Source: Rubripirellula sp. (GTDB taxonomy: Bacteria; Planctomycetota; Planctomycetia; Pirellulales; Pirellulaceae). Taken from it: 64,000 nt of DNA. The notes beneath the pieces were generated by a model. The model was not told the DNA's origin. It ran no database searches and was given only the letters and a program-made list of their open reading frames with translations. Shown here piece after piece: positions 24,092 to 27,930 of the stretch (within the stretch, counting starts at the first letter, position 1; every line of letters starts with the position of its first letter). The stretch is taken from contig OZ244207.1 in NCBI GenBank assembly GCA_965216875.1, positions 4,000,001 through 4,064,000 of the forward strand, in the 5' to 3' direction. The translations under genes and the position numbers were made by a program.

Positions 24092-24109
24092 GGCCAGTGC
24101 GTGAGCATC

Positions 24110-24361
24110 ATCAGCCGAAACGCGATAGCGTGCGGTTTTAACATCCGCTAAGAACCGCGAGCTATCGCTCAGCGGCTGATGAAACGCGACGTGAGCCGAA
24201 CGCGCTAGCGTCGGGCCTTGCGTTCCATTACACGCCTGCTAGCGCCCGTCATGCGGAGCATGACCTACGAGGAGGACGCGGAGCGTCCGAAAAGTGCGTT
24301 ACCACGCAGAGCGGGGTAACGAGGTGGGGGAGAGTGAGCCGAACGCGCTAGCGTCGGGCCT
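24110..24361. repeat. Composite REP mosaic (at least 4 palindrome families)
   Basis: GTGAGCCGAACGCGCTAGCGTCGGGCCT twice (24191, 24334), an ATCAGCCG...CGGCTGAT inverted pair, GTCATGCGGAGCATGACCTAC, and GGACGCGGAGCGTCC..AACGAGG; all recur elsewhere in the window. Confidence 0.8.
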
Positions 24362-24451
24362 CTCTTCTTTATGCGATACGCACAGCCCGAGGCCTCACGG
24401 ACAACAGCCCGTCCCTCTACACGTATCCCTGGCACGACAACCAGTTGCCAA

Positions 24452-24883
24452 CTAGATCGACCGGCCTACAACGTGCAGGTCAATCGTTGGGTTCTTGGGA
24501 TCACTTGTCAGTAGCTGATAGGTCCAACGGTACTCTTGCGTCTGGGTCGTGCCTTGTTGAGATGACCGCAAGGTTGGCCTTGCCCATTTCACGGTGATCG
24601 ATTGCGTTTCGCCAGGCGGGATGGTGCGGTCACACGGACCGACGACGGGAGGCGTTCACATCGCCGCACCAATCATCACATGGATTGGATCGCTACCGGA
24701 GTTCCGCAGCTTGAAGGTCGACGTTCCGCTCGCACCCGGTGCCAAGGCCCCCACATCGATCTTGGTTTGAACTGCCGTGATCGAAGGCCGTTCAAGCGAA
24801 GCGTAAACCGCCATCCCAATCGCCGCCGCGGTCACCAACGCCACCAAGGTCGAAAGCCGGTACTGCCGAAATCGCATCATCAT
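24452..24883 (-). CDS. DUF1573-like Ig-fold protein with in-frame TGA at codon 76 (candidate selenoprotein, or pseudogene)
   Basis: Read through TGA (24656-24658) it gives F.LRNSGSDPI.V..AAM-*-TPP...TIPPGETQSITVKW...TSDPKNPTIDLHVVG, a complete DUF1573-type domain. SECIS-like hairpin immediately downstream. Confidence 0.65.
24624..24643 (-). promoter_or_regulatory. Candidate bacterial SECIS hairpin
   Basis: GT-CGGTC [CGTGT] GACCG-(C)-AC; loop starts 19 nt after UGA with GU at loop positions 2-3. Confidence 0.45.
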
Positions 24884-25141
24884 CTCATCCCGTCCAAAAT
24901 AGGTTTCAGGTCTCTTTTTACCTTGGAGGTTCGAGCAAACTGTTGCTGAAATGTCAAAAACAAGCAAAAGAAACCTCAAAGCGCATCCAGCATCGGTTGG
25001 CATCCCCGAGCAATCTCGTGTGCTACGATGCTTGGCATGCTGCCAGGTCGACACCAAAGTCACATCCCGCATCCCGATGATCGATTCCCCTCACGCCTAT
25101 CGCGACAGGTCCTACAGCAAGCGCCTTCCAACGACTCACCG

Positions 25142-26212
25142 ATGACCAGCCCCATGGCAAACAGCTCCCTCCGCATCTTGTTACTCTTGTTGACGTTGTC
25201 CGCTCTAACAACGAGTCGCCGCACCGTCGCAGACGACGGGTTCTTTTTGGCGATCGGTGGTGTCAACGGGCAAGCCGACGACGGAAACAAACTCGAGGGG
25301 CAATACGGAACGATCTACACCTCACGCGACGGCCAAGCGTGGACGAAGGTTTTCGAGGGCGGCCCAGTCAAAGACGGTTTCAATCACGCCAACAACAACC
25401 TGCTGCGATGTGCGACCTATGGCAGTGGCCGGTTCGTCATCACCGGCAATCCCAAATGCGCCGTCGTCTCGACCGATGGCAAGCAATGGCGTGTCGTCGA
25501 AGCTCCCTCCGGCGCTTTCAGTGTTGAATTCGGCAACGACCTGTTCGTCGCTCCCAACGCCTACGGGTTCATGACATCCAAGGACGGTCTCGCATGGAAG
25601 ATGAATCGGCCCAAAGTCGATTTCAAGATTTGGGGAAACGATGGTGCTGGCCATGTTCGCAAAATCGTCTTCGGCAACGGCGTCTTTGTTTGCGTGGGCG
25701 AGCAGCGAGTCGGCGTCACGAGAGATGGCAAGACATGGTTGCACCATCGCGTGCTACCGCCGAGTGAGCGGCCTGGGCGCAACGTGCTACTGTTCGGTAA
25801 CGGCCGGTTCGTGTGGCTGTGCGAAAAGACAGGGCCTCTTCAAAGTGTGGACGGTATCGAATGGAAGCCCATCACGACCTTCACGGACCTAACCGAGCAC
25901 TCCAAATTCGGCTACAGCGGTGTTTTTGACGGCACGCAATTCTTGACGTCACCATCGACCTACAACGACAAGAACAAGATCATTTACCGCTCGACCGACG
26001 GCGTAGCTTGGACCAAAGCAATCGAAAACGCCGGAGCAACCTCGTTCAGCGCTGCGGGCAACGGCCTGCTGCTGCAAAACCAAGGCTGGTCGAATTCGTT
26101 TGTCGTCTCCAGCGATGGCGGCAAGACGTGGAAGAAAACCAACGCTGACGTGCCCAGCCGAAAAGTCTATTTCTTCGACGGCAAACGAATGATCGGCCAA
26201 AGCGGTGGCTAA
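25142..26212 (+). CDS. Secreted BNR/Asp-box repeat beta-propeller protein
   Basis: Signal peptide; repeated S.DG..W motifs and FGNG.FV. Confidence 0.75.
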   Translation: MTSPMANSSLRILLLLLTLSALTTSRRTVADDGFFLAIGGVNGQADDGNKLEGQYGTIYTSRDGQAWTKVFEGGPVKDGFNHANNNLLRCATYGSGRFVITGNPKCAVVSTDGKQWRVVEAPSGAFSVEFGNDLFVAPNAYGFMTSKDGLAWKMNRPKVDFKIWGNDGAGHVRKIVFGNGVFVCVGEQRVGVTRDGKTWLHHRVLPPSERPGRNVLLFGNGRFVWLCEKTGPLQSVDGIEWKPITTFTDLTEHSKFGYSGVFDGTQFLTSPSTYNDKNKIIYRSTDGVAWTKAIENAGATSFSAAGNGLLLQNQGWSNSFVVSSDGGKTWKKTNADVPSRKVYFFDGKRMIGQSGG

Positions 26213-26370: not shown

Positions 26371-27090
26371 GTGCACGATCACTCTCACGAACTCACGCTT
26401 GGATTGGCCTTTTTCCTTGGGGCAATCCATGCTCTCGAGCCCGGGCACGGAAAAACCGCGATGCTCGTTTACCTCTCCGGTGAACGACGCGGTTTTTGGC
26501 ATCCCTTCGTCATGGGACTCTCTAGCGCGGTCGCCCATTCGGTATCGCTGCTCGCGATCGCCGCCATCGTCCACCTGACACAGCACGCGATAACGGGCGA
26601 TCACCACCACGAAGACGAAAGCGTCGTGGTGGTGATGCAGTGGATCAGCGGTCTGCTGGTACTCGGCGTTGGCCTTTGGATGCTCGTGACCGCCTCACGT
26701 GCCAAGCCGGCGTCGTGTGGTTGCGGACACCACCACGACAAGGACCATGACCATACACACGAAACCACCGAAAAACAGTCGAAGAAACGAAGCTATTCGA
26801 TGAGCGCGCTGTTGGGCGTTGCCTTTGGGTTGCTCCCTTGCCCCTCCGCATTGGCCGCCTACTTCACCGGCATCGCAACAGGAACACCGGTCGCTGCTTA
26901 CGCAGTGATCGCTTTGTTCGCCGCCGGCATCGCCTGTTCACTGACGACCTGCGGCTTGCTTGTGCAAAAGTTTGGCCAGCGGCTTTTCAAACACGAAGGT
27001 CGGCTAAGCCGGTTGCCGTGGGGCCATCTTCGAGCCGCCGTGATCCTGCTCGTCGGCGTTGCCTATACCTACCGTGCCGCCATTTCCTAA
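26371..27090 (+). CDS. RcnA/NiCoT-like nickel/cobalt transporter (HoxN/HupN/NixA superfamily)
   Basis: LGAIHALEPGHGKT, His-rich loop CGCGHHHDKDHDHTH, GLLPCPSAL. Confidence 0.85.
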   Translation: MHDHSHELTLGLAFFLGAIHALEPGHGKTAMLVYLSGERRGFWHPFVMGLSSAVAHSVSLLAIAAIVHLTQHAITGDHHHEDESVVVVMQWISGLLVLGVGLWMLVTASRAKPASCGCGHHHDKDHDHTHETTEKQSKKRSYSMSALLGVAFGLLPCPSALAAYFTGIATGTPVAAYAVIALFAAGIACSLTTCGLLVQKFGQRLFKHEGRLSRLPWGHLRAAVILLVGVAYTYRAAIS

Positions 27091-27099
27091 AACGCACGC

Positions 27100-27930
27100 T
27101 TACGAAGCTTCTTCGGTACGCATCTCGATTTGGGCATAGGCGTTGTGCTGATGAATCGACTCAAAATTCTCTGAAGCACATCGAAACCAAGCGATTCGTT
27201 GATCGGACTTGAGCGCCAGGGCTAAGTCACGCACAGTGTCTTCGACGAATTTCGGATTGAGGTAAGCCTGTTCCGTAACATGCTTTTCATCCGCTCGCTT
27301 GATCGTTGGATAGACCCCGGTCGACGCCGCGTTCTCCATCACCTGAAACAGTTCCTCGATCGACAACGATTCGCCACGCCGCATGCGAATGCTCGCCGAA
27401 AGTTTGCAGCGTTGGTTATGGGCGCCGTAGTCCGAAATCTCTTTGGAACAGGGACACAGTGACGCGGCCGGCCCAGCGACCGTTAACACCAGATCCTCAC
27501 TCGCGCCCACCGTCGCGGTAAGTTCAACGTCAAGACGCAATTTCCCTGGCTCGCTCGAAATGGGAGCACTTCGGTCGACGAAGTAAGGAAAACGCACTGT
27601 GATCGACGCTGTCTCGGCGCCGAGCCGCTGCCGCAATGCGGAACACAATTCCTTCAAGCCGTCGTAGTCGAGCGGCCGGTCCCAATCTCGAAGCACCTGC
27701 ACGAACCGAGACATATGCGTTCCCTTTACCGTCGCCGGCAGCGAAACGAACATGTCAAACGACCCTACCGTCCCCTGGAGCGATTCGGTGCCTTGAAGTT
27801 CGGTGGAGGAACTTGATGATGATCGGAAGGTGACGGGATAGGGCACGCTGGTGACGCCCACTCGGTCGATACTCAGATTGCGCGCGTCCTGGTACGCCTG
27901 GACGTCGGGAAGGGTTTGTACGTGATTCAA
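27100..27930 (-). CDS. folE2: GTP cyclohydrolase IB (Zn-independent FolE2)
   Basis: LPDVQ, IDRVGV, KGTHMSRF, SLCPCSKEIS.YGAHNQR, KRADEK.VTE.AY.NPKFVED.VR, NFESIH.HNAYA. Confidence 0.93.
   Translation of the reverse strand: MNHVQTLPDVQAYQDARNLSIDRVGVTSVPYPVTFRSSSSSSTELQGTESLQGTVGSFDMFVSLPATVKGTHMSRFVQVLRDWDRPLDYDGLKELCSALRQRLGAETASITVRFPYFVDRSAPISSEPGKLRLDVELTATVGASEDLVLTVAGPAASLCPCSKEISDYGAHNQRCKLSASIRMRRGESLSIEELFQVMENAASTGVYPTIKRADEKHVTEQAYLNPKFVEDTVRDLALALKSDQRIAWFRCASENFESIHQHNAYAQIEMRTEEAS

Follow-up and report, generated by a model that had tools for sequence, protein, structure and literature searches.

Selenoproteins with a DUF1573-type domain have been listed since 2007-2008, when the OS_HP2 family, annotated as 'DUF1573 domain-containing protein', was described (Zhang & Gladyshev 2007, PMC1976440; 2008, PMC2398784). 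In the parts of the literature available to us, the motif catalogued for these proteins is UxC (PMC2398784) or UGC (PMC9312934, PMC13188914), where U stands for selenocysteine (Sec), and the portions at hand of the papers that treat DUF1573 together with selenocysteine give the UGC form only (PMC9312934, PMC13188914). A published list of planctomycete selenoproteins (PMC4807772, Table S9) names no DUF1573-type protein and holds one entry called 'hypothetical'; the main text of the paper on BSepDB, in its available part, mentions neither DUF1573 nor Planctomycetes, its family table being in the supplement (PMC13326102). Here we analyse a small gene with a DUF1573-related domain and an in-frame TGA, located at 24452..24883 on the minus strand of a 64,000-nt stretch of the planctomycete Rubripirellula sp. 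(assembly GCA_965216875.1, contig OZ244207.1, positions 4,000,001 to 4,064,000). This stretch, called the window below and numbered from its first letter, corresponds to C1:4000001-4064000 of a single-contig genome of 8.26 Mb.

We consider it very probable that this is a genuine selenoprotein gene and that its UGA is a Sec codon, as had been proposed in an original prediction made from the letters of the window. We hold this view because the genome encodes the machinery for Sec insertion, because the UGA, the reading frame downstream of it and a hairpin of the genome's own selenocysteine insertion sequence (SECIS) type are all conserved in a distant orthologue, and because most other homologues carry Cys at the position in question.

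A reading frame conserved across an in-frame UGA

Positions 24883..24452 of the minus strand form a single frame of 143 codons, which runs from an ATG at 24883 to a TAG stop at 24452-24454 and whose sole in-frame interruption is the TGA of codon 76 (24656-24658). The start was placed at the run of ATG triplets at 24883 because the homologues begin there (MMxRRFRQF). Translated with U at the TGA, the sequence reads …RNSGSDPIHVMIGAAM-U-TPPVVGPCDRTIPPGETQSITV…TSDPKNPTIDLHVVGRSI and then the stop, so that both the strings of the original prediction and its read-through from the TGA to the TAG at 24452 were reproduced. Its remark that the track of open reading frames (ORFs) lacks the 3′ half (codons 77-143, 24455..24655) also holds: a Table-11 listing gives only the 5′ part (24656..25072) and a 46-residue 3′ fragment (24452..24592), and in public protein collections the gene of the window is present only as a 75-residue N-terminal fragment (P0002). 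The segment that ordinary ORF calling misses encodes the C-terminal family motif TSDPxxPxIxLxVxGR, and profile matches extend to residues 111 and 141. When the window was scanned for another in-frame TGA gene, every frame returned was either contained in a long ORF or antisense to one.

An exhaustive HMMER search of 1.84 billion representative sequences gave 249 matches at E-values up to 0.001. Among the best 150 of these 249 were the candidate's own 75-residue fragment, a full-length protein of 140 residues with 45% identity (P0004), a set of full-length proteins of ~130-205 residues with the same architecture, and two short proteins, P0016 (91 residues) and P0098 (75 residues), which end exactly one residue before codon 76. 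Judging from this truncation at the same column, P0098, for which there is only a protein record, may be a further TGA form. A word-indexed homologue search with the single protein returned no matches; with a profile of nine sequences it returned seven matches and no new truncated forms. The single-protein search of genome contigs found no related locus, and a scan of metagenomes found one, of a Gly type considered below.

The DNA behind P0016, locus L070 in the planctomycete genome G061, turned out to encode an orthologue, aligned to the candidate over 142 residues at 46% identity with 0 gaps. Its TGA stands at the matching codon, and its frame stays open as far as a stop that coincides in position with that of the window gene, with an amino acid identity of 48% upstream of the TGA and of 42% downstream, and its genome encodes SelA and SelD. 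Like the gene of the window, it is recorded in public collections as a fragment, a 91-residue 'hypothetical protein' (P0016/P0152) that starts at an upstream ATG. From the comparison of the two sequences, a dead 3′ half would not be expected to remain open, ungapped and equally conserved across such divergence.

At the other end of the range of divergence, contigs of a close strain (public run X5) cover 24334-25100 with 11 differences in 767 nt and with the TGA unchanged. Six of the differences lie in the gene, four of them synonymous third-position changes (codons 64, 66, 93 and 109) and two, S107T and Q116R, in a variable loop; there are no insertions or deletions. Runs X6 and X7, both at low depth and perhaps not independent, show identical sequence over the TGA. 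Degradation or frameshifting after the stop in relatives and a strain-specific nonsense mutation had both been named as findings that would count against a Sec codon. When looked for, the downstream frame was intact in L070 with conservation like that upstream, and the TGA was kept at the same codon in L070 and in X5, which speaks against a nonsense mutation confined to one strain.

Which position of the family does the UGA occupy? In an alignment of 49 sequences, the 47 others carry Cys (33), Gly (7), Asn (5), Arg (1) or Pro (1) at the Sec column, so that the stop does align with Cys in most homologues. In ungapped alignments this column is the first Cys of a C-x-C-T motif; in the candidate as in the genome's own Cys paralogue it lies 15 residues past an invariant Asn and 14 before the Pro of a Pro-Gly motif. 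The original prediction had Sec replace the Cys that directly precedes the Thr, and this part has to be corrected, since the ungapped spacing assigns it to the first Cys of the motif. The Thr after U is coincidental, the corresponding residues of the orthologue being G-U-S-S. The second Cys of the motif, at +2, is absent from both (U-T-P here, U-S-S in L070). Both Sec forms have instead a Cys at +8 (U-x7-C), a residue shared with just 2 of the 47 other sequences.

The downstream hairpin and the selenocysteine system of the genome

The genes for Sec insertion are present: selD (325282-326163), selA (327405-328478) and selB (around 328768) form a cluster at 325-330 kb of the genome, and a tRNA-Sec with the anticodon TCA lies at 7784438-7784530. 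The genome was also scanned for in-frame TGAs with coding-like flanks, and 17 candidates were checked against Pfam with the TGA read as Cys. In six genes (loci L040, L041, L042, L043, L046 and L047) a Pfam domain runs across a single TGA, the domains being HMA, CMD/AhpD, ArsC, AhpC/TSA, rhodanese and an fmdB-like molybdopterin enzyme. The local motifs of four of them (HMA MV-U-GGC, CMD CVF-U, ArsC G-U-TSC and AhpC/TSA GG-U-TKEC) place Sec at what we take to be the known active-site Cys positions. Two further genes (L044 and L045), encoding an FG-GAP/DsbD_N protein and a 1102-residue protein, have strong hairpins and no Pfam domain across the TGA; together with the six they served as eight reference genes. 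The remaining nine of the 17 were dropped, with no Pfam match or a match not bearing on the TGA. A BLAST search for Sec/Cys pairs among the paralogues of the genome served only to nominate reference genes; it missed the candidate and yielded mostly noise from antisense and repeat-family frames. The selenoproteome of this genome is thus at least seven genes, six of them supported by Pfam, plus the candidate as the seventh. As an observation apart, the fmdB-like molybdopterin gene adjoins selD-selA-selB.

Fourteen nucleotides past the TGA of the candidate, CGGTC (24641-24637) and GACCG (24631-24627) form a stem of 5 bp, all Watson-Crick, closed by the loop CGTGT (24636-24632), whose start lies 19 nt after the UGA, exactly where it had been predicted. 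A bulged U (24642) and then one extra G-C pair (24643 with 24626) follow beneath the stem, the whole element occupying 24626..24643 of the minus strand within the codons for V-G-P-C-D-R. Inside the loop lies the TGT codon of Cys84 (24632..24634), 8 residues past Sec and a candidate partner for it.

We compared this element with a pattern consisting of a stem of at least 5 bp that starts 11-17 nt after the UGA, and a loop of 3-5 nt in which GU occupies position 1-2 or 2-3. All but one of the eight reference genes match it, with stems of 5-8 bp that are perfect or contain G-U pairs and with the loops GUC, GUU (three genes), GGUC, AGUUG and CGUGA. The candidate matches as well (14 nt, 5 bp, loop CGUGU), near the geometry of the AhpC/TSA gene (14 nt, CGUGA). 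This pattern count, set against a genome-wide background, was preferred to a covariance model of the genome's SECIS elements, which was dropped because the hairpins share too little sequence for reliable automatic alignment. In the background the pattern occurs after 1,065 of 59,999 sampled plus-strand TGAs when G-U pairs are allowed (1.8%) and after 225 of them when only Watson-Crick pairs are (0.37%); the corresponding counts are 21 and 8 among the 1,743 TGA stops of ORFs of at least 300 residues, and 681 and 144 among 42,127 scanned in-frame TGAs. The match of the hairpin to the genome's SECIS type is therefore informative, and insufficient alone. An Rfam search of 24300-25000 gave no bacterial SECIS match, its one hit being a chance-level HOTAIRM1_3 at an E-value of 8.8.

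The orthologue adds a second line of evidence. In L070 the hairpin UGGUC-CGUGU-GACCG likewise follows after 14 nt, and the lone change in the stem, C to U, keeps the pairing as G-U. The two genes share codons 82-86 (GGT CCG TGT GAC CGC; G-P-C-D-R) exactly; elsewhere, codons 76-90 set aside, they use the same codon at 21 of 53 conserved residues only. Five identical codons would be expected about once in a hundred if codons were independent, which we take as support and not as proof because the constraints on protein and on RNA overlap here. By its agreement with the genome's SECIS pattern and its conservation in an orthologue that also bears the TGA, the hairpin lives up to the role of SECIS first suggested for it.

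In the SECIS of Escherichia coli fdhF, SelB binds an apical hairpin whose loop contains G and U and whose 5′ side bears a bulged U. The candidate resembles it in three respects: the hairpin lies inside the ORF just past the UGA, its apical loop contains GU, and its short upper stem has a bulged U beneath it. It differs in having an upper stem of 5 bp and a loop of 5 nt, and in that the lower helix is not conserved between the orthologues. The CGCC/GGCG lower stem, which had been put forward as possible, is not supported: it is present in the minimum-free-energy fold of the 76-nt region, but it is not kept in L070.

The Gly-type sister, rival explanations and the predicted protein

The nearest homologue without the TGA (L069 from a metagenome; L087 from genome G457) is 45% identical to the candidate and has GGA (Gly) at the Sec codon. 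Arg replaces Cys84, and the hairpin codons read GGG CCG CGT GAT TAC, with which the hairpin cannot form; its genome encodes SelA and SelD. This homologue lacks all three features, so that UGA, partner Cys and hairpin either occur jointly or are jointly missing. In a maximum-likelihood tree of 22 small-family and outgroup sequences, the two Sec forms group with the Gly form (support 80/78). The Gly form stands beside the protein of the window (89/84), Cys forms open the sister clade and Cys is found in the outgroup, all with moderate support. On these sequences the simplest history would be a change from Cys to Sec followed by loss to Gly in one lineage; a direct change from Gly to Sec would be the alternative, which is not favoured as the simplest.

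The same homologue can be cited in favour of regarding the gene as a pseudogene, in which a Gly (GGA) or Cys codon has mutated to TGA, leaving a dead gene or a 75-residue stub with residual similarity downstream. GGA in the closest full-length homologue is one base away from TGA, the gene is rare and missing from the syntenic site of a same-genus genome, and public gene calls end at 75 residues. Nevertheless, a decaying gene accounts poorly for a second gene at 46% identity with the same TGA, no gap, the same end and 42% identity downstream against 48% upstream, or for a conserved hairpin of the genome's SECIS type past the TGA, and the close strain shows four synonymous against two non-synonymous changes and no frameshift. 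We thus regard a pseudogene as very improbable.

We give equally little credence to read-through without Sec, in which a near-cognate tRNA (Trp, Cys or Arg) would decode the UGA at a low level, or the 75-residue protein would be the main product, with the hairpin only slowing termination. The short stem and the unremarkable overall fold energy would be in keeping with this; however, a complete Sec system is present in the genome, which employs this type of hairpin in at least six enzymes with Sec at positions known for an active-site Cys, the UGA stands at the Cys column of the family, and the nearby Cys is lost together with the UGA in the Gly-type homologue.

Returning to the reading of the UGA as Sec, the domain encoded by the gene runs across codon 76. 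With Cys in place of Sec, the protein matches the Pfam families HYDIN_VesB_CFA65-like_Ig (28.2 bits, cut-off 25.5; 2.3e-6; residues 39-111) and DUF1573 (PF07610; 26.6 bits, gathering cut-off 26.1; 6e-6; residues 36-101), both matches crossing that codon; in a six-frame search of the genome with the stop left in, the DUF1573 score was 20.0 bits, below that cut-off, which makes the match to DUF1573 a borderline one. The best NCBIfam match is OS_HP2 (NF041425), with 23.8 bits against a cut-off of 100, over residues 49-141 and profile positions 13-96. An AlphaFold model built on the 49-sequence alignment has a mean predicted local distance difference test (pLDDT) score of 90.5 and comprises a helix at residues 10-30 and eight β-strands, four on either side of codon 76; the loop with Sec is its least confident block (69). 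The top Foldseek hit is the ASH domain of OCRL (3qbt; E-value 5e-8, template-modelling score 0.68), and HYDIN PapD-like domains (2e6j, 2ys4) and CEP192 (6fvi) were also found. The predicted fold is an ASH/PapD-like (MSP-type) immunoglobulin-like (Ig-like) β-sandwich, which in the model is incomplete without the segment after the TGA. The expectation that read-through would restore a complete Ig-like domain of DUF1573 type was well founded, given that the Pfam matches span the TGA and that four strands of the model lie on each side of it. That a real stop at 24656 separates two small genes, the second an independent 46-residue ORF from a GTG at 24592, agrees with the two pieces of the Table-11 listing and is still the least probable explanation of all, hardly worth retaining, since the TGA lies within the profile matches and within the predicted β-sandwich, codons 77-97 between TGA and GTG hold the conserved VGPCDR and PPGE motifs, and the full-length homologues are single proteins.

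The N-terminal helix (24794..24856) is a predicted transmembrane segment with pLDDT above 90 and is preceded by Arg4, Arg6 and Arg9. From the positive-inside rule it is predicted to be a signal anchor, with the Ig-like domain outside the cytoplasm. Decoding would proceed by SelB, carrying Sec-tRNA(Sec), binding the hairpin as the ribosome reaches UGA76, upon which Sec would be inserted. The product would be a protein of 143 residues in which a membrane anchor at the N terminus is followed by an Ig-like domain of eight strands (ASH/PapD-like, DUF1573-related), presumably located on the outer side of the cytoplasmic membrane. The predicted model has Sec76 on the loop that joins strand 4 to strand 5, which itself opens with Cys84. 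The two residues would form a selenol/thiol pair, serving as a redox or soft-metal-binding site; this putative role is suggested by analogy with the general behaviour of Sec/Cys sites.

Much more tentatively, the U-x7-C proteins might be a separate subfamily that uses an outward-facing Ig-like scaffold, not of the thioredoxin fold, to carry a selenylsulfide site for redox chemistry or a soft metal. In these proteins the codons of the peptide with the partner Cys (V-G-P-C-D-R) would provide the SECIS, so that RNA signal and active-site peptide would be one stretch, gained and lost together. We see this as a possibility on the doubtful side.

A number of observations weigh against the assignment of Sec to codon 76. 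There is one orthologue with a verified TGA, L070. No orthologue was found in 60 relatives, where the best match (35%) is to the first domain of long-form proteins, mostly of ~390-540 residues. None was found in 400 genomes of the order, nor in 400 of the phylum. The syntenic site in genome G002, of the same genus, yielded none either and has a different, convergent ORF of 451 residues after the M16 peptidase gene. At the Sec column, 14 of the 47 other homologues are without Cys, and the closest full-length homologue carries Gly. As for the RNA, the five codons identical in L070 also encode the conserved peptide GPCDR, so that the constraints on protein and RNA are not fully separable. The 5-bp stem is the shortest in the set of this genome, and the energy of the 76-nt fold is ordinary (z = +1.03, with 173 of 200 shuffles folding at least as well); fold energy by itself therefore shows nothing. 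The hairpin pattern was drawn up after the candidate had been seen, its limits being set by the eight reference genes, and the molybdopterin reference gene, with an interrupted stem, falls outside its strict form. Finally, the codon-usage score of the 3′ half, +0.07 per codon and the best of the six frames, lies only at the 28th percentile of ORFs of 250-450 residues and gives modest support, the score by itself being too weak a discriminator for a piece of 67 codons.

Gene neighbourhood and relation to known selenoproteins

The gene lies among those for an M16 peptidase, an Asp-box-like secreted protein, a NicO/DsbD_2-like His-rich membrane protein and folE2; the neighbours of L070 are only small unrelated ORFs. 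Since the neighbours are not conserved beside the orthologue, gene context is uninformative on function. A scan of 24100-25100 for promoters and terminators gave none. In the interval that separates the selenoprotein gene from that of the M16 peptidase, a palindromic element of 28 nt occurs twice in identical form, at 24191-24218 and 24334-24361. Its 22-nt core is present in 167 copies in the genome on both strands (89 + 78), and Logan contigs break at it with a depth spike of several hundred-fold; it looks like a dispersed intergenic repeat of the repetitive extragenic palindrome (REP) kind. Directly past the stop of the M16 peptidase gene there is also a 30-nt inverted repeat (24108-24137 / 24153-24182; 80% complementary, arms 15 nt apart), at which the consensus terminator scan made no call. 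On the other side, and divergent from the selenoprotein gene, 25028-26212 (+) encodes a protein of 394 residues in which repeated S-x-D-G-x-x-W (Asp-box-like) motifs can be seen by eye, with no Pfam match at E-values up to 0.001. Further on, the gene for the NicO/DsbD_2-like protein (26371-27090, +) adjoins folE2, which encodes GTP cyclohydrolase IB (27103-27930, -). Such a pair is typical of metal-limitation regulons; no link between it and the selenoprotein gene was seen.

Within the planctomycetes, the candidate is best compared with long, membrane-anchored DUF1573 proteins of ~390-460 residues that carry G-x-T-C-K-C-T, of which its own genome encodes two paralogues (C1:2635321 and C1:6949813) and which are matched in 49 of the 60 related genomes. 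They share the N-terminal anchor and the first domain with it, at 25-35% identity over residues 30-141 and ungapped around the motif, and are the Cys counterparts of the Sec column. In contrast to the candidate, they have ~250 extra C-terminal residues, Cys-x-Cys and no TGA, except for one homologue in genome G049, from the same order. This homologue (L022 769-1959, -) is a long form of 396 residues with the motif S-C-K-TGA-T, the TGA standing at the second Cys of CxC, and with a 10-bp hairpin, loop GAC, 8 nt past the TGA. G049 encodes SelA (332 bits), and selD was found in it only below the cut-off (57 bits). Possibly, L022 is a second, independent Sec form in the family.

Why does such a gene escape the catalogues? 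The Sec form scores far below the OS_HP2 model, and because of this it is invisible to family-based selenoprotein catalogues. As far as OS_HP2 is described in the available parts of its sources, the two have in common an Ig-like domain of DUF1573 type, the alignment position of Sec, where the CxC motif has its first Cys, and a bacterial SECIS inside the ORF directly past the UGA. Unlike OS_HP2, on the same partial basis, the candidate reaches 23.8 bits against a cut-off of 100, lacks the second Cys of U-G-C and has a Cys at +8 instead; it is small and single-domain, with an N-terminal anchor, has so far been found in planctomycete genomes only, and its nearest relative has Gly.

What these comparisons add is a small, membrane-anchored planctomycete U-x7-C subfamily far below the OS_HP2 cut-off, and a Sec/Gly sister pair. 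The selenoproteome of this planctomycete genome would thereby gain a presumably extracytoplasmic member without a thioredoxin fold. The two Sec forms and the one Gly form, which differ in UGA or GGA, in Cys or Arg and in the presence of the hairpin, offer a natural case for the joint loss or gain of Sec codon, partner residue and SECIS. Because selenoproteins were already known in the family and decoding follows the standard bacterial mechanism, the gene adds detail to the existing picture of OS_HP2 and the other DUF1573-type selenoproteins and does not open a new category.

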